Under the pieces are notes generated by a model. It saw only the letters and a list, made by a program, of their open reading frames with translations, was not told the origin of the DNA and searched no databases. From Welwitschia mirabilis (Eukaryota), in the NCBI GenBank assembly GCA_051453625.1, contig JBOZIK010000001.1, forward strand, positions 151,937 through 190,708: a stretch of DNA of 38,772 nucleotides, in the 5' to 3' direction. Position numbers and translations under genes: made by a program. Below are positions 1-12,448 of this stretch, piece after piece (position 1 is the first letter of the stretch; every line of letters starts with the position of its first letter).

Positions 1-1339
1 AGTTTTTAGCAAGTTAAGGCACATGTCTAACATCCTAAAGAAACAGTTTTCTGTCGTCACTTCCTTTCAGCATTATAGAACCAGTTCCTTTGATCTCACA
101 ATGTCGATCATCCCCCAAATATACATACTTCTCTGAAACTTTGTTACATAAATAAAACATCGAAACATCTGGGCAGACATGAAAAGAAGCATCAGAATCC
201 AAAATCCAAACATCAGAGCAAGAGTATTGAGAAACATTTGTGCATTTGCAATCANNNNNNNNNNNNNNNNNNNNNNNNNNNNNNNNNNNNNNNNNNNNNN
301 NNNNNNNNNNNNNNNNNNNNNNNNNNNNNNNNNNNNNNNNNNNNNNNNNNNNNNCCCTAGATACACATACTTCTTTGAAACTTTGTTATATAAAGAAAAC
401 ATCAAAACATCTGGGCAGACATGAAAAGAAGCATCAGAATCCAAAATCCAAACATTAGAGCAAGAGTATTGAGAAACATTTGTGCATTTGCAATCAATAC
501 AACATCAATATCTCCTTCTGTGTTTAACCCTTGTCCTACATTCTGGCTTTGTTGGTTACCTCCTTTCTGGCGTTGTTTTTTAGGCTGAAGTAGTCCTTCC
601 GTAGATGATCTTTCTAGCAGTGCCAACATCCAATGCTTCTTTTGACAAATTTTCCTTTGCTCTTGCTTTGTCAATGTTCTCCTTCTTTGGTCTAAGAATG
701 TCCTCTACGAATAGCAAGGGATTCTTTAATAGACTCAACAACCCTAGTCTTGTATGCATCTAGAAGCTTTAAAATTATAGTATTCAGGCGGAACATAGTA
801 TCTAGGGCAGTCATCAGTGTAGTGCGAACAGTCTCCCAAGAATCAGGCAAGGAACTGACAACCACAATTACCCTTAAGTGTTCTTCAAACATTACTTTCA
901 AGTCGTCCAACTGTGTGAATAGGCCGTTCATCTCATCTAGGTGTGCTTGCAATAATACACCTTATTTCAACTTCATCTTGAAGACCTTGTTAACAGTATA
1001 AAATTGATTCATGCTAATAGGCTAATCATAACTCTACATCAAAATCTACTACAATTCAGTTGTTGTAGAGATCTTGTTGTGGGATTTAAAAATCCCATTG
1101 CGAAGGCATGGCCGTATCAATGAAAGTGCCCTTCTTTCAAGTTTCTTCCACTCTTCATCATGGCACTTCTTCAACTATTCTGCGTCAAAAAGTCTAGATG
1201 CTACCTTTGCATCTACTTCTGTCTTTAGGACAACGTCACATTCCTTCTGGTAAACAATGACTTCCCTCAAAATCTTCCATATGCCCTAGTTCTCAGCTCC
1301 AAGTAATCGGTCGCTAGTCTGCGAACGCTCCCTCCTCAT
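1..1339 (-). pseudogene. Degenerate copia gag-protease
   Basis: ATG at 1339 gives MRRERSQTSDRLLGAEN*GIWKIL (gag N-terminal G.NY..WK-like). ORF 692-952 reads HLDEMNGLFTQLDDL...VVSSLPDSWE (UBN2/gag). Protease reads WILDSDASFHVCPD...VYLGDDRHCEIKGTGSI...DVRHVP*LAKN. Stops and frameshifts are present. Confidence 0.88.
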
Positions 1340-2007: not shown

Positions 2008-2299
2008 NNNNNNNNNNNNNNNNNNNNNNNNNNNNNNNNNNNNNNNNNNNNNNNNNNNNNNNNNNNNNNNNNNNNNNNNNNNNNNNNNNNNNNNNNNNNN
2101 NNNNNNNNNNNNNNNNNNNNNNNNNNNNNNNNNNNNNNNNNNNNNNNNNNNNNNNNNNNNNNNNNNNNNNNNNNNNNNNNNNNNNNNNNNNNNNNNNNNN
2201 NNNNNNNNNNNNNNNNNNNNNNNNNNNNNNNNNNNNNNNNNNNNNNNNNNNNNNNNNNNNNNNTTTTTTATGTTTTATTTTTTGGTTTCGGCTAATTTG

Positions 2300-2565
2300 A
2301 GCGGTCATATAGTCACTAAAAGGTTTTTCATGAAGTCCATTGATTATTCAAGCTAAGATAGGAAGCCATTTAATGGTAACTACCATGAAACTACTTCTTT
2401 TAATATTGAAGAAGGAATGGAGAAATTGTTCCAAATAATCTTCTTATAAATCATTTTTCATGCAATCCAAACTCTTTTTAAAATAAAAGATTCTTAAATC
2501 TTGACATCTATTGGAGACATAAACTAGTTAACTGAAGGGGCACCTTTCAAGCTCTCCCTCCCTAC
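2300..2565 (-). pseudogene. Probable post-RT continuation of the L1-type LINE ORF2 interrupted by the PLE
   Basis: Minus-strand translation ...ESFI/KRVWIA*KMIYKKIIW resembles the S.IF..IW.AW segment that follows the GGLG motif in plant LINEs. Same orientation as the LINE at 5340-8030. Confidence 0.45.
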
Positions 2566-2719
2566 AGATGACATCAACACTAATATACCGAAAGATGCTT
2601 CTCACAGGTAGAATGGACCTTGCTTTACAGTCTGACCTTTTGCTAGCAATGTCAACATTAAGATAACAAATATTCAACGCTTGCATGGGATAGGTGTTGC
2701 ATTCAAATCGAAAACAAGA

Positions 2720-3050
2720 TAAGTGATCTATTCTTGACACTAAAGGATAGGATTGTAAGAATGGAGAGATGTGGAATCTATAAGATCAAATGCATCTGCG
2801 TTATGTATTACATTGGTGAAACTAAAGGATCTTTCAAAATCAAGATGAAAGAACATAAGGCAAACAAAAGACATCAGTGAACACAAAAGTTACCTTTAAT
2901 AGAACACATGAACATTGTTAGTAATTGGAGTGGATATTTAAAGATATGATGATCATTGTCATTTGTGAAAATGATTATGAAAGGAAGCCTAGGAAACATT
3001 AGAGATTAAAATGCATAGAAACAATATTAATGGAGATAAATGGTATTTTG
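2720..3050 (+). pseudogene. GIY-YIG endonuclease domain remnant (copy 1)
   Basis: RCGIYKIKCICVMYYIGETKGSFKIKMKEHK...IEHM...ENDYERK..LEIKMHRNNINGDK. GIY at 2773-2781, YIG at 2809-2817. Confidence 0.92.
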
Positions 3051-3143
3051 ATAAGCACTAAGGTCTCTTTCCTTTCCAAATTCTACACATGACCAAGTAT
3101 TTATAATTTCTTTCCCTTATTTTCTATTTTCTTGTTCTCCTGA

Positions 3144-3180
3144 CCTTCATGGTCAAGGCTTCAATCCTCAAAACGTTGGT
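3144..3180 (+). ncRNA. Degenerate minimal hammerhead ribozyme motif (PLE type), copy 1
   Basis: cttcatggtCAAGGCTtcaATCCTCaaaacgtt. Together with copy 2 it gives the consensus CTGAnGA-CGAGGCTnnnAGCCTC-GAAACGTT. Confidence 0.5.
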
Positions 3181-3269
3181 TATTGTATTACAAACTATTA
3201 GCGTAAGAATGCAGTTTATTGCAAGTAACAATGACGTGAATGGTCAACAGGACCACCACAGTTTAGTGT

Positions 3270-3510
3270 ACACTTACACCAAGCTCAAGATCAAAAGAAA
3301 AGAATAATTTCGGCTATTAAATTTCTTAAGGGGTGCAGAGATGAAGACCTGAAACCAAGGTTTGGAATTGTGAAACCAAAGAGCTCTACACCTCACATGA
3401 AAAATCTCTTCTTGGATTTCAGCAAAGAGATTGTGAAAATTGAGTTGAGATTCAAAAGAACCTTTCTCAATGACATCATGGTATTCTGAATAACATACAT
3501 AAGAAGGTGG
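3270..3510 (+). pseudogene. PLE ORF N-terminal domain remnant
   Basis: HLHQAQDQKKRIISAIKFLKGCRDEDLKPRFGIVKPK...FSKEIVKIELRFKRTFLNDI. The FL..C.....P.F motif is typical of Penelope N-termini and directly follows pseudo-LTR 1. Confidence 0.75.
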
Positions 3511-4058
3511 CGAAAGAACATGGAAGAGTAAAGAGATGACTTGTCTGCGCCGAGGAAGAGTAAGAACTAAGAAGCCATGTAGCAAGAAGGATGTAAACGT
3601 GCCGTGAAGGAGGCCACAGTGCTTGCAGCGAGGATATCTCGGTTAGCGCAGAGGAGCAAGACGCATTATGGGACAGTAACGGTCACCACCTTTGAGCACC
3701 AGGCAACGGTTGTAGCATAGCGCCGAGCCATGAAAGGACCGAGGAATGCTTGTGGGCGCAGATCAGTATTACTTTTGGATCGACTGAGAAGGGAAATGTT
3801 GGGAGCAGCGCGGAAATCCCACGACCGAAGAGCGCAGAAAGCCTGCAACCCAACGCAGAAAGCAATGGCGGATCGGTCCGCGTCCAACAGCCAACGCCTG
3901 TGGAGAGTGTTAACGCTTTCGCAAAGGATGCGTACATCTCCAACAATAGATCAGAGACTGTCAACATTCTGGAGAGATCTGTTTGAAACGCTAGGAAGGA
4001 TCTGTGGTTTGGCCGATGATGCGATGATAAAAAGGATGAACAATGAAAGAACAAAATG
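3510..4058. other. GC/CpG-rich insert of unknown origin within the PLE ORF
   Basis: Abrupt rise in GC and CpG content (e.g. gcggatcggtccgcgtcc). No PLE motifs; RT motifs upstream of the QG/SPLSP motif are absent here. Confidence 0.6.
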
Positions 4059-4059
4059 G

Positions 4060-5185
4060 TGGTAAGCATTTTAAAAGGCAAAGTTGATGAAGAGACTAAG
4101 GCTGATAAAATCCTGCCTTGAAGTTACTCTTTTCAAGTTATAAGGACACCGTTTTTGAACAAGTAAAAGGTGTTATAATGCTTCACCTCTCTCTCCATTG
4201 GTGGCTGATGTGTTCATGAGGAAAAACCTCTCAATGCCTAGAGGCTACAACCCTTGTGGTGGAAGAGATATGTAGACGATATCTTATGTTTAGTGGAAGA
4301 GTATGAGAAAGCACTCAAAGACTTTCTTAAATATCTTAACTCTAGACATAATGGCATCAAGTTCATGATGAAGGTGGAAAAAGAGGACATCATAACATTC
4401 TTAGATTTAGTCATTCAAAAGAGTAGAAACTCCAAAGAAGAATTTTTTCATAGGATTTTATAAAAAAGGCACCCACACAAATAGGGATGTTGATAGCTCC
4501 TTGAATATCCATCACTTATAAAAGATTAGCACCATTTCAACATTAGTAAATACAACATACGTATATTGTGATGATGAATAGTTTTAGTAGGAAATAAGCC
4601 ACATCCATGAGATCCTTCTTCACAATGGCCATAGTAAAAGAGAAATTAAACAAGTATGGAGAAGGGTGATATACAAAGTAATTGGTAGAGGCCTAAGACA
4701 TCAATGCTAGAATAACCAGAAATTCTTTTAACATGTAGAATGAAGCTCACTTTATAATCCTACCTTTTGCCGACAAGCTTAACATTAAGATAGGAAATAT
4801 TCTACACTTCTACAAGATAGGTTTTATGTTCAAATCCACAAAGAGGATCAGTGACCTAATCCTCACACCAAAGAATAAGATTGATAGAATGAAGAGATGT
4901 GGGGTCTCCAAGATTACATGCACGTGTGGCTTTGTTACATTAGAGAAATTCAAAGATGTTTCAAAATTAAGATGAAAAAACAAAAGGTAGTTGGATGGCA
5001 TTAGTGAACAAAACATTTGCCTCTAGCAAATGATGTGAACATTGCGAGTAATCACTGGTGCATGTTTAAATATGCCAAGATCATTGGCATTTTGAAAAAT
5101 GATTATGAAAGGAAGATTTAACAAGCATTGGAGATTAAAGTGCATAGAAATAATATCGATAGAGATAATGACATTTTGATAATGC
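4060..5185 (+). pseudogene. PLE reverse transcriptase (C-terminal part), thumb, linker and GIY-YIG copy 2
   Basis: LIKSCLEVTLFK/YKDTVFEQVKGVIM/SPLSPLVADVFM; ORF 4254-4463 contains RYVDD; IILPFADKLNIKIGNIL...RCGVSKITCTCG; ALEIKVHRNNIDRDN. Many stops and frameshifts. Confidence 0.92.
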
Positions 5186-5336
5186 TAGCGATGTCATGCT
5201 TTCTAAACTCAGTAAATGATTTAGCATTTATAATCACTTTCCCTTATTTTCTCTAATCTAATTCTTTACACCCTTAGGACGAAGTTGTAAGCCTCGAAAT
5301 GTTGATTGCTATATTACAAACTATTAGTATAAGAAC
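4697..5336 (+). repeat. PLE pseudo-LTR copy 2 (3' end of the element)
   Basis: Direct repeat of 2570-3208. Confidence 0.88.
5272..5305 (+). ncRNA. Degenerate minimal hammerhead ribozyme motif (PLE type), copy 2
   Basis: CTTAGGA cgaagttgtaagcctc GAAAtgttg. One mismatch from the CUGANGA core, intact GAAA, decayed stem II, located in the PLE 3' UTR. Confidence 0.6.
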
Positions 5337-5339
5337 AAT

Positions 5340-8030
5340 CTTTAATTGTTCAAAAACTAAGTTATGCCATCATCTCACGGAGTGTAAAAAATTAGTGAAC
5401 TACTTACCACACAGGGAGATACTTTGTAAAAATGAGTAAAAAAGGTCTAAAGCTCCTTTTTTTAAAGGTAAGCAACAAATCCTCTAGGCAACTTTATGAA
5501 ATCCTTTCCTTTCATTGTTACTTGTTCATGAAAATTGATAGAGTAACTTTTTAATTCACTTGTATCTTGAAATAGTGGGAACTAACAAGAGGAATAATAG
5601 ATATGAGTAGCAACTAAATACTTTTACACACTACATAGTTTTCAACCCTGGTGAGATATTTAATGTTTCATTTCTTTACTCTGGAAGTAAGTTTATTAAC
5701 AGTAAAGTCAACCCTTGAAAAGAAAATGAATTTCTAAGAAGTTTAATCACCTCATCTTTTTTAACAAATTTTCATGGTTTATAGAGAAGCCAAAAATAAT
5801 TTTTGAAAATAGTAAATGGTGAATACTTTTCCCAATTGAACTTTGGATTAAATAGAGAACAATAAAGATCAATACTGGATAGTAGCTTATTAATTACATC
5901 TTGAGAATTCTTAATAAAAAAGAATGGTTCATCTATAAAGTGTTTGTTGACAAGTTGTTTTGGATTTTTGCTAATACAAATACCATGAATACAATTGTCT
6001 TGCTCATCCTTTCCAATAGCATGATATAAAAAGTCTATTGTAATAATAAAAAGATAAGGAACTAAAGACAATCCTTGCCTTATAGGTCTTTCAATAGGAA
6101 GGTGAAACTAATACCTCCTACATTGGAAGTACAAGCGTTTACATCCTTGAACAAATAAGTTGACATGTGAATGAAAACCTTTTCAAATGTTTGCTTTTTC
6201 ATGTGAGTTAAGATAAAGTTCCATTCATTTGTATGATAAGCTTTTACATAATCAAGTTTAAGTGAGGTAATATCTTGATTAGTATACTTTGTCCATGCTA
6301 ATTTCTTCCCAAGACGATACAACATTATTAGGAATATATTTACATTTTACAAAATCACTTTGTTTGATACAAATAATATTAAGCAAGAGAGTCTTCAACT
6401 TGTTACTTAAATATTTAGCTAAAATTTTATAAGAAATATTAAGTAAAGTTATTGGTTTCCAATTGGAAATAGAATGTAAATCACCTTGATTTTAGAAAAA
6501 GACATATGACATCCTGATTACCTTGTAACCTAAGTTGCCTTTGTGTAAGGCTTTTTAAAGTGCCCTAAAATAGTCCTTTCTAATAATATCTCAATGATTT
6601 TTATAAAATTTTATAGTGAGCCATCCATTCCTAGAGCCATAGCATTAACTATGTCAAAGAAAGCTGCTTTTAACTCATCCTCAATAACAAGTTTCTCTAA
6701 ATTTTGATGAGGGACCTTTAAAACTTTTGGGAAGTGAACTTAGCATTCTAGTCATAGAGATACTAATGAAAACCATCTCATTTGATGGCCTTAGTATAAT
6801 GCTTAGCTAAACAACTAAGAATGGCTTAAGAACCCGATTGTGAACCATTATCAACTTCAAGTTTGTCTAATTGAAGAGAAGTAGAATATGTCGTAAGGAA
6901 TCTAGAAAATTCTTTATAATTAGCATCTTAAATGTTAAGCCAAAATATGCTCCTAATATCATCACTTTAGTAAAATAGATTTTTCAAGAATCTAGATAAT
7001 TCTTTATTTTTAAGAACTATTTATGGAAATGATGACTAAAGGGATTGTGTTCATTAACACTAATAATATATGATGTTAAATGTTTAAAATACATTCCTTA
7101 CTTTATTAGCCATTTGTTTACCAACATGTCTAAAATGTTGTGAGATATGACACGTAGCATGAATCCACCATGTAATCTATCTATTATTGCCACTTGAATT
7201 AGGCTTTTCATTTCATAAGATGTGAAAAATAGTTTTCTTGATTTGAAATTATATGGATTTTCATATAATCTGAAGAGAGAAGAATGATTTTGCTTGGCTA
7301 AATGCTTGAAACCAATTTGCAAAAATAATGGCATAATGATCCAATAATTTGTAATCATTCTAGAATTTAACAATAACATTCTAATTCCAAAAAGAAAGAG
7401 AATAAAAATAAAATCCATTAGCGCATTTAAGAATATATCATGTCCTAATTAAAAGTTTGACCAAGTATAAAGGATCCTTAAGGAGAAGAGCAACATTGCT
7501 AAAGGCCATTAATAAGATAAAAAATTTCTTCAAGAGAAGACAAAGAAATCTATATGTAAAAAGACTCTTCTATCTTATCAAATAAATTCTTTATCATATT
7601 AAAGTCTTTACTAAGGATCCAAGAAACATTTAGAAGAAAAAAGGGTGAATCTAACCATAAAATAGCTCTTTTAGAAATTTTTTTTGGAGCATGAATAGAT
7701 CATATTACAAAACCTATATGAGGGTAAAAAAGAAGCACTCAGTTACATCTATTTCAAGAATAAAGATCAATTTACACTACTTTAGAGTGCCAACATGAAT
7801 GAATGATGGTAAAAGAACCACTTGTGCTAGTAAAATGTCTAATGGTAAATGTAACCCTATTTTTAACAAATAACTTCCCAACAAACGTCATTTCTTTTTC
7901 AGAGATTTTGAATTCTTGTAATATTATAAAATTAGGAAACAAAGGATGTTGCTAAATGAAATCCATAGCTCTTCTTCTTTAAAGGTTATGAATAAGATTT
8001 CTGACATTCGAAGATTATATAATCATGAAT
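5340..8030 (-). mobile_element. L1-clade LINE ORF2 remnant (AP endonuclease + RT)
   Basis: Minus strand: SSNVRNL (~8015; SWNVRGL-like), ILQEFK, NWKPITLLNISYKILAK (~6415-6465), LKLDYVKAYH (6080-6325 ORF), SLVPYLFII (5772-6071 ORF), HKVA*RICCLPLKKGAL (~5450-5500). Confidence 0.9.
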
Positions 8031-10725: not shown

Positions 10726-12448
10726 CTTCTTCATGTCTTTAGATGTACAATTTTCTTCATCTATCATTTTAATCAATTGTGTACTTTGCATTGTTAAACC
10801 TTCATAGAAAACACTCATTATTTTCTATTCTATAAAACCATATTTAGGGAATTTCATCCATAGATCTACAAAGTGTTTAAATTATTTGTAGAAAAGCTCA
10901 TTATCATGTTATTATAAATCCAGAACCTTATGTCAACTTATTAGTTTTATGTGCTCAAAACATTTCTTCAAAAGTTTACAATTAAGATCGCTTCATAATC
11001 TAATTATCAAAGGTTTTAAGAAATGTAGCAAGAGTATACTTTTTATTTCAAAGAAAGGAGAAATAATTTCATACTTTTTACAATTAAGATCTCTTCCTAA
11101 TCTAATTAGCAAAGGTTTTAAGAGATCGTGTTTTCTTTGAGGATCTTTTTGCTTTCTCTAAAAAGATCTTGATAAGCTTCAATCAGACTTTCATACTCTT
11201 CCTTGTCATCTTCCACATTTTTTTTCAATAGATGTTGGTTCATCCTCTTTAAAATTAGAGAACCAATATTCTTCTTCATCACTATCTTTTTTATGTGTAG
11301 TTTTTGAAACATTTCTCAAATTTAACTTATGAGGGTTAGATAAATCTAATTCAAAATTATCATTTACCTTTATGATGAGGGCCATGTTAGGAGAGGTAAA
11401 GATCATAAGAGATAACCTCTTACAATCATGAGAGTCTTTCTTTTTAGACTAATCACTATCCTAAATATCCATGTTACATTTTTCTCTAGGGTTCATTAAT
11501 TCTTTCTTTTTCTTGTTGTTTGGACACTTAGCTATCATGTGTTCAAGCTCTTTATGAGCATAACATTGAATCCCTTTCTCTATAGAGTTGCCCTTGGATT
11601 TTGAGAAGAATGTACTATCTTCTCTTTTGTTTCTCCATTTCTTATTTATCAACATGTTCTTAAATTTTCTAATAGACAATGCTAATTATTCATCCATATC
11701 AGAATCAAAATCAGAGGACCTAAATCTAGGAGAGTCATCTTTGTTAGTATGTTTATAAGAAGAAACCTGTTTAGCATTGAGAGCCATACCTTTGCCCTAT
11801 ATGCCTTTGTGAAATGCCTTAATTCAAATGTCAAAATGTCACTTACCAATTCTTCAAGCTTGATGTTTTCAATGTCCTTTATGCCTTCAATTAATAGGAC
11901 TTTGTTTTCATAAGCTTTTGGTAGAGACATCAAGATCTTCTTAGTGATTTACCTAGATTTGAGAGGTTCTCTAAGGCCCTAAAGACCATTGATAATGTCG
12001 ATCAATTTACTATTGAATTTGGTAAATTTTTCATCATCTTGCATTCGAATTTCCTCAAATTGTGTTATGAGAGTTTGCTTCTTAGTCTTCTTAAGCTAAT
12101 TAGTGCATTCATATAATACCTGCAAGTAATCCCATATATCTTTAGCAATAGAAAACTTTCTTACTTTTTTGTAATCCTCTACATTGAGACCATAATCAAT
12201 AGCAATCATTGTCTTCTTATTGAACTAGCTTGACCTTTCTCTTTGTCATTCCAGGTGCTCCTTGGTTTAACAACAAACGTAGTGACTCCATTATTTATTT
12301 AATGCTCCATAGGAGGGGATATGCCTTCTTCCATCATAGTCCAATAGTTAAAGCTCATAGCTTCAATGAATACTTGCATCCTTATCTTCTAAAATTCATA
12401 ATTTGCACCGATGACGTAATAAGGATAGTTGATTGATTAACCTTCCAT
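10655..12448 (-). pseudogene. Degenerate Sirevirus-like gag
   Basis: ATG at 12448; ORF fragments 11682-11933, 11461-11679, 11206-11406 and 11118-11312; many stops. Confidence 0.85.

Follow-up and report, generated by a model that had tools for sequence, protein, structure and literature searches.

A stretch of 38,772 nucleotides of Welwitschia mirabilis DNA (GenBank assembly GCA_051453625.1, contig JBOZIK010000001.1, positions 151,937–190,708 of the forward strand; this whole stretch is referred to as the window) was analysed around two short sites at 3146–3181 (relic A) and 5269–5307 (relic B), which an initial annotation had described as a fossil pair of hammerhead ribozymes in the flanking repeats (pseudo-long terminal repeats, pseudo-LTRs) of a Penelope-like element (PLE). 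These sites are very probably decayed minimal type I hammerheads of an endonuclease-bearing PLE pseudo-LTR, situated on the sense strand just after the endonuclease region. Judged by sequence and by predicted folding both ribozymes are inactive, as the annotation had expected, because G5 is gone in both copies (G12 and G10.1 are also gone in A) and neither copy is predicted by RNAfold to adopt a hammerhead fold. The features of the element are as follows (ORF, open reading frame; RT, reverse transcriptase; HMM, hidden Markov model).

2533–3209, + strand: copy A, a partial, decayed upstream PLE unit (ORF end, GIY-YIG remnant and 3' non-coding end), taken as the upstream pseudo-LTR
3146–3181, + strand: hammerhead relic A, placed by its sequence and by column homology to B
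3235–3486, + strand: what is left of the N-terminal coding region of PLE unit B, stop-free, found by HMM, ~30–60 nt past relic A
3540–4100, no strand assigned: GC-rich stretch in place of the N-terminal/RT-finger part of unit B, delimited by composition
4180–4572, + strand: copy B RT remnant with YVDD palm motif and YLNSRH region, found by tblastn
4739–5247, + strand: copy B GIY-YIG endonuclease remnant with stops and at least one frameshift, found from translations and by tblastn
5269–5307, + strand: hammerhead relic B, the sole relaxed-descriptor match in the window
5304–5335, + strand: 3' tail past the former cleavage site of copy B, bounded by the end of similarity at 3209/5335

Probable hammerhead relics A and B

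The two strings quoted in the annotation occupy 3145–3178 in copy A and 5272–5304 in copy B; the ranges given for them (3144–3180 and 5272–5305) do hold the strings and are one to two bases generous. The sites are homologous by blastn and by the constant spacing of direct repeats (see below), and in the MAFFT alignment the strings correspond column by column apart from a single 1-nt gap.

In relic B the 5' strand of helix I (5269–5272) is followed by the box CTTAGGA (5273–5279, with T at G5), an unpaired c (5280), the 5' strand of stem II (5281–5286, GAAGTT), a gta loop (5287–5289), the 3' strand of stem II (5290–5295, AGCCTC), GAAA (5296–5299), TG (5300–5301, a decayed CG) and TT (5302–5303); the former cleavage site lies at 5303/5304 and the 3' strand of helix I, whose first base is g, at 5304–5307. 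Relic A consists of a degenerate box region (3146–3153), an unpaired c (3154), stem II strands AAGGCT (3155–3160) and ATCCTC (3164–3169) separated by a loop at 3161–3163, AAAA (3170–3173, with G12 lost at a CpG), CG (3174–3175) and UU (3176–3177), with the former cleavage site at 3177/3178 and the 3' strand of helix I starting at 3178.

A stem II of the expected kind (5–8 bp, closed by G10.1–C11.1 and preceded by one unpaired base after A9) can be recognized: that of B forms five of six standard pairs, including one G.U, with an A.C mismatch and with G10.1–C11.1 kept, and that of A forms four of six pairs and has lost G10.1. The GAAA core (G12–A13–A14–A15.1) is intact in B and reads AAAA in A. 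A palindromic dinucleotide at 15.2–16.2 followed by U16.1–H17 is found as CG-UU in A and as UG-UU in B, where CpG has become TpG. In sum, A is without G5, G12 and G10.1, and B is without G5, C15.2 and two stem II pairs. In hammerhead numbering A14 belongs to the core and U17 to the cleavage site. The palindrome of functional relevance would therefore be A15.1-C-G-U16.1, 4 nt long, and not the 6-nt AACGTT that had been put forward as stem III.

The window was searched with a relaxed descriptor derived from the relatives described below, which allowed at most one box mismatch and asked for one unpaired base, a G-C-closed stem II of 5–8 bp in which no more than one pair is mismatched, a 3–6-nt loop, GAAA and N-N-U-H. 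In 35,276 non-N bases, read on both strands, its only match was at 5273. Windows simulated with a second-order Markov model averaged 0.015 matches (200 simulations), and under two further settings 0 of 100 and 3 of 100 simulations contained a match.

Copies A and B differ by 127 transitions and 104 transversions, and CpG is depleted (7–8 observed versus 20–22 expected). The copies were merged by a rule fixed for every transition column of the 758-column alignment (C over T, G over A). Exactly one site on either strand of the merged alignment fits a descriptor with a perfect 6-bp stem II, and this is the hammerhead site. The merged motif also has G12 and the CG palindrome. At constrained positions of the motif the copies differ by six transitions (10.1, 10.3, 10.5, 12, 15.2 and 1.2), every one of which resolves in favour of the hammerhead, and each of the three CpGs assigned to the motif has been lost in exactly one copy. 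From the alignment, the A/B differences look like the decay of a better motif, with most of the losses of the methylation type (C-to-T, G-to-A).

Host element and probable tandem arrangement

The host element is, on sequence matches, a PLE, and the assignment made in the annotation is borne out by hits to both of its enzymes. Translations contain a decayed RT remnant with a YVDD motif and a YLNSRH region (4242–4460), and in copies A and B alike the endonuclease region is of the GIY-YIG type and riddled with stops and frameshifts. A 73-residue RT piece gave a single match in the homologous-protein search (P0003, E = 6.6e-6); this protein has Pfam RVT_1 (E = 3e-11) and in tblastn against the window aligned to 4242–4433 with 37.5% identity (E = 3.3e-10). 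In a protein-atlas comparison the RT piece resembled animal PLE clusters.

Relatives were collected by scanning metagenome contigs with an RT alignment, which gave 127 confirmed sequences, of which 80 loci (237,649 nt) were kept. In tblastn the long ORFs of 12 relatives matched the RT remnant at 4180–4572 (best E = 3e-10) and the C-terminal part of six relatives' ORFs matched the copy A endonuclease at 2698–2910 (best E = 7e-7); the copy A endonuclease piece itself matched copy B at 4847–4927 (E = 4e-8). A PLE-type RT with a GIY-YIG endonuclease downstream of it is therefore indicated by these matches. Between 2910 and 4180 the 12 PLE ORFs gave no tblastn match at E ≤ 1. The relative with the highest RT identity to the window (L001, 46%) is not close at the DNA level, and its contig stops short of the expected hammerhead site. 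A pattern made from the conserved 3' block had no match in genome contigs and none in viral contigs.

Copies A and B align by blastn over 2570–3209 and 4697–5335 with 72.1% identity in 646 columns, and a repeat search resolved seven direct-repeat blocks (D1–D7) with start-to-start spacings of 2126–2129 nt and identities of 72–85%. The last of these, D7 (3163–3209 versus 5289–5335, 81% identity), is among the best-conserved A/B blocks. Similarity stops at 3209/5335 and unrelated DNA follows 5335; with 2280–5400 as a blastn query, no third copy was found elsewhere in the window. A paralogous contig from sequencing runs X1/X3 skips 5181–5288 and aligns again from 5289. A plain segmental duplication of a dead copy was considered and rejected, since A and B cease to be alike at the PLE 3' end (3209/5335) and have different flanks.

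The segment directly after copy A, 3235–3486, came top among all six-frame pieces of the window in a search with an N-terminal HMM (E = 0.0022, 14 bits; runner-up E = 0.2); the model was built from the ORFs of five relatives with segments picked after the motif had been seen in the window, which makes this E-value somewhat optimistic. The N-terminal motif F-L-x-x-C-x5-L-x-P-x-F lies at ~3322, 175 nt past box A, and in the relative L020 the same motif lies 213 nt past its hammerhead box. Because this N-terminal remnant stands directly after copy A, copy A is most likely joined head-to-tail to unit B in a partial tandem with pseudo-LTRs, and the pseudo-LTR reading of the annotation is probably right; a partial head-to-tail tandem is what defines PLE pseudo-LTRs in PMC8557442. 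Two observations speak for the tandem, namely direct repeats that extend over no less than 640 nt with 72% identity and the N-terminal remnant after copy A; against this, ~1 kb of unit B is replaced and copy A adjoins an assembly gap (N run 2008–2263) on its 5' side.

The replacing stretch, 3540–4100, has 47–54% GC against 29–40% in its surroundings and gave neither PLE homology (12 ORFs, tblastn) nor a Pfam family above cut-off. A single contig of run X3 spans 2900–4396 with 25 differences, and the GC-rich arrangement is therefore not a misassembly of the window alone. Long open frames occur on both strands of 3540–4100.

Comparator hammerheads and the weighing of alternatives

A strict descriptor (CUGANGA or UUGANAA, 0–1 unpaired base, stem II with at most one mismatch, GAAA) was applied to the 80 loci and found 36 sites on the strand of the RT and 13 on the opposite one; 34 distinct comparator sites had exactly one unpaired base. 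A covariance model (R1) was built from 15 sites with one unpaired base and recovered 48 matches from the 80 loci at E ≤ 0.1, including some that the descriptor had not picked up; a second model (R2) was built from all 48. In the 48-match alignment (43 distinct rows) 87.3% of the cells are paired (76.7% of the helix I cells), and the covariation score is 0.827 versus 0.237 in shuffles (reached in 0 of 500) and 0.10–0.16 with slid partners, with the reservation that the alignment was fitted to the model, which favours the structure. Among the 43 rows C3–G8 and U3–A8 occur 20:20, and G10.1–C11.1 is present in 40. By their sequences, the comparators are real minimal type I hammerheads of PLEs, built on one plan: a box of 7 nt, a single unpaired base, a 5–7 bp stem II with G–C closure, GAAA, a palindrome of 2 or 4 nt and U-H. 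The motif in the window shares with them the unpaired base after A9, C2.1–G1.1, G10.1–C11.1 and a 3-nt loop. GAAA followed by cgtt-g recurs in L023, L026 and L046, and cg-tt-g is seen in copy A. The unpaired base is C in the window copies and mostly U, with a few A, among the relatives.

Those relatives closest in RT sequence (L002–L007, L016, L020, L023, L025 and others) mostly carry the U3/A8 core UUGANAA and not CUGANGA; a covariant U3/A8 core has been reported for Schistosoma Cercyon elements (PMC4209133). Two related hammerheads, L010:1180–1230 and L046:2296–2346 (−), differ in their core. The box of L010 reads CTCATGA, with C in the place of G5, and its GAAA is followed by TG where CG would be usual; single-base core decay is therefore found in other PLE families as well.

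The comparators lie at a fixed place. Of 30 downstream sense-strand matches, 26 lie 1005–1328 nt past residue 1 of the RT query (median 1128), the remaining four being at 382, 566, 764 and 2594 nt, and the box of copy B lies on the sense strand 1031 nt past the same residue. Among 32 loci that cover the expected place, 18 have a covariance-model match there, and descriptor sites are present in three of the other 14 (L027, L031 and L067).

A number of results weigh against the assignment of the two sites as hammerheads. The core box is incomplete, with five of six specified positions fitting in B and at most three of six, plus a 1-nt indel, in A, and the invariant catalytic base G5 is C in A and U in B. 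The annotation had noted that neither copy shows this G, and merging the states of A and B in any combination fails to restore it (zero sites with no box mismatch and one site with one). The last common ancestor of A and B most likely already had a pyrimidine in place of G5, judging from the alignment, unless the 1-nt indel misleads it; an ancestral pyrimidine is probable because two independent transversions from G are unlikely. Helix I falls short of the usual ~4–5 bp: B pairs two of the first four positions (G–C and U–A), and three contiguous pairs appear only after merging, with the G of A at position 1.2. Moreover, the window supplies just two copies, which are not independent of each other.

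Profile and folding searches point in the same direction. An Rfam scan returned no match in the window at gathering thresholds, and at E ≤ 10 on 2280–5700 it returned four matches, none of them a hammerhead. Searched over the whole window, R1 produced 32 matches at E ≤ 10 (top score 12.5 bits), from which the hammerhead site was absent; the site received 8.4 and 8.5 bits from this model only when 166 nt were searched, relic A scoring 8.5 bits (E = 0.053) over the AAACGUUG part only. R2 scored relic B at 9.9 bits, with E = 4.1 window-wide (rank 12 of 26) and E = 0.018 in 166 nt. E-values of 0.018–0.058 for the site were thus confined to 166-nt covariance searches, which is short of a significant match, and the proposed stem II was left unused in the R1 and R2 alignments. 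RNAfold gave the hammerhead fold in neither copy: the minimum free energy of B was −4.0 kcal/mol (z = +0.78), and A had z = −1.18 with a different structure. The tolerances of the relaxed descriptor (one box mismatch and one stem mismatch) were set with knowledge of copy B, and looser rules match the window at 2–31 places (2 without the G–C rule, 10 with short stems and long loops, and 31 without the U-H rule); even with 10 matches, one would fall on the right strand inside the ~320-nt expected interval with a probability of only ~0.05. For the host, Pfam gave nothing above cut-off on the short PLE pieces, RVT_1 reaching only E = 0.03 on the 73-residue piece and GIY-YIG not being found.

These results are also what would be expected of a chance resemblance, in which the PLE 3' end never had a hammerhead and an AT-rich sequence was improved by a favourable merging of diverged copies: covariance scores of only 8–10 bits lie inside the noise of the window, Rfam is silent, G5 is missing twice and loose descriptors match freely. 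Such a coincidence is nevertheless very improbable, since with the documented G10.1–C11.1 rule the site is the only match on both strands where 0–0.03 would be expected, it falls on the sense strand within the ~320-nt interval that holds 26 of 30 relatives' matches, and the perfect stem II arises from an a priori transition rule and not from free choice. Another possibility, held to be very improbable, is that the block 5289–5335/3163–3209 was kept for a different role, for example as a 3' RNA segment recognized by the RT or as a 'tail' at which reverse transcription starts, and that its likeness to a hammerhead is secondary. The conservation of D7 and the resumption of the paralogous contig exactly at 5289 are in keeping with this, as is the description of PLE reverse transcription as starting internally near the 3' end and of hammerhead mutants of the Anolis element PAc as inserting normally in vitro (PMC11167929). 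It leaves unexplained the box, the unpaired base and the 5' strand of stem II, all of which lie upstream of the block and complete the motif; the two functions are, moreover, compatible with each other. That one of the motifs is still an active, non-canonical ribozyme is scarcely credible: the sole point in its favour is that GAAA, U16.1 and U17 are intact in copy B, but G5 is replaced in both copies, stem II of B contains an A.C mismatch and a G.U pair, no hammerhead fold is predicted, the surrounding ORFs are full of stops and none of the 13 sequencing runs that contain the stretch is recorded as RNA.

Known systems and genomic surroundings

Minimal hammerheads have been described in the pseudo-LTRs of metazoan PLEs (Cervera & De la Pena, 2014; PMC4209133), where dimeric cleavage was proposed to process RNA to unit length. 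The pair described here shares with them the location in flanking repeats on the sense strand, a long stem II (6 bp) closed by G10.1–C11.1, the unpaired base between A9 and G10.1, the lack of a helix III hairpin, the palindromic 15.2–16.2 (CG) and the short helix I; the 33–48 comparator hammerheads follow this plan as well. It differs in its broken core (G5 lost in both copies and G12 in A), in a helix I of at most 3 bp and in having C as the unpaired base. In the live element, a head-to-tail tandem transcript would have carried two motifs, each made up of the 7-nt box CUGANGA, a single unpaired base, a stem II of 6 bp with G10.1–C11.1 as its closing pair, GAAA, CG and U-U. As a helix III hairpin is lacking, the two motifs would, by analogy with the published systems, have paired through A-C-G-U to form helix III between them, and each would then have cut after U17, here at 3177/3178 and 5303/5304. 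The present locus would be a partial tandem in which unit B has lost or replaced ~1 kb of its ORF.

A further comparison is offered by PAc, an element of the Poseidon type from Anolis carolinensis (PMC11167929). There the hammerhead lies at the junction between the 3' end of one unit and the start of the next ORF in tandem, and in the window an N-terminal ORF remnant is likewise found within ~60 nt of relic A. The PAc hammerhead is active in vitro and overlaps the start codon, whereas everything in the window is decayed and no start codon can be confidently assigned. Cleavage in PAc is reported there to depend on the protein of the element, and hammerhead mutants still insert in vitro. According to Craig et al. 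(PMC8557442), the role of hammerheads in endonuclease-bearing PLEs is unclear.

Among plants, Dryad denotes endonuclease-bearing PLEs of conifers, which are held to have reached them horizontally from arthropods (Lin et al., 2016, as cited in PMC8557442). The window resembles Dryad, by description only, in holding a PLE with a C-terminal GIY-YIG domain among plant-like neighbouring repeats, and differs in that its PLE family is low-copy at ≥80% likeness in sequencing runs. The supplements of PMC8557442 contain no Dryad, Pinus or Picea entry, and a literature search that excluded Lin et al. (2016) itself found no paper on hammerheads of conifer PLEs. Animal retrozymes of the non-LTR kind likewise have type I hammerheads related to those of PLE pseudo-LTRs (PMC7229834; bioRxiv 10.64898/2026.07.22.740005); they are short non-coding tandem units, whereas the motifs in the window flank a coding PLE unit and are 2126–2129 nt apart.

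The pair adds one more degenerate example, nothing out of the ordinary, to a kind of feature described since 2014. For a very old, low-copy PLE family the relics show where the element ends on its 3' side and where its units meet, and they help to annotate the locus as a partial tandem. With a pyrimidine at position 5 in both copies, it may be that the ribozyme was already dead in the inserted element or its master, and the shared loss of G5 could bear on whether PLE hammerheads are needed for transposition, if family-wide data confirm it. The repeats around the element hint that the host is a plant whose genome is giant. The combined proposition that an animal-type dimeric minimal hammerhead was carried into plants with an endonuclease-bearing PLE and that the inserted element or master was perhaps ribozyme-dead by then is rather unlikely; if true, it would amount to evidence from within a genome that PLEs can retrotranspose without hammerhead cleavage, which is also what in vitro results for PAc suggest (PMC11167929).

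The relic pair is flanked by remnants of a copia-type gag and of a LINE RT, both on the minus strand, in a repeat-rich draft scaffold with 19 N runs. The neighbouring features are as follows.

695–961, − strand: copia-type gag, Retrotran_gag_2 (E = 2e-9)
5775–6107, − strand: LINE reverse transcriptase, RVT_1 (E = 0.0016, below cut-off)
11685–11948, − strand: copia-type gag, Retrotran_gag_2 (E = 6e-4)

Sequencing runs (two raw-read and two contig runs at 80% likeness, with 69–103 records per run and a PLE depth of mostly 0–2 reads) contain the PLE locus at ~98% identity in organisms A and B and indicate a low-copy PLE family. Among the differences listed from these runs there are none inside 5272–5305. 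Directly past the end of copy B, ~35 nt at 5339–5375 belong to a very abundant repeat, with a depth of 123–161 in the contig runs and, in 1% raw-read samples, of ~6–11 per strand column (~15–20 with both strands summed), against 0–5 nearby; it may be a MITE end or a satellite unit, and loose ends pile up before 5334–5341 and behind 5373–5375. At the start of the window 35–254 and 355–504 are nearly identical and flank a 100-N gap (255–354). They are a copia-type remnant on the minus strand with a WILDSDASFH-like protease motif, and their duplication looks like one introduced by assembly across the gap rather than a biological one.

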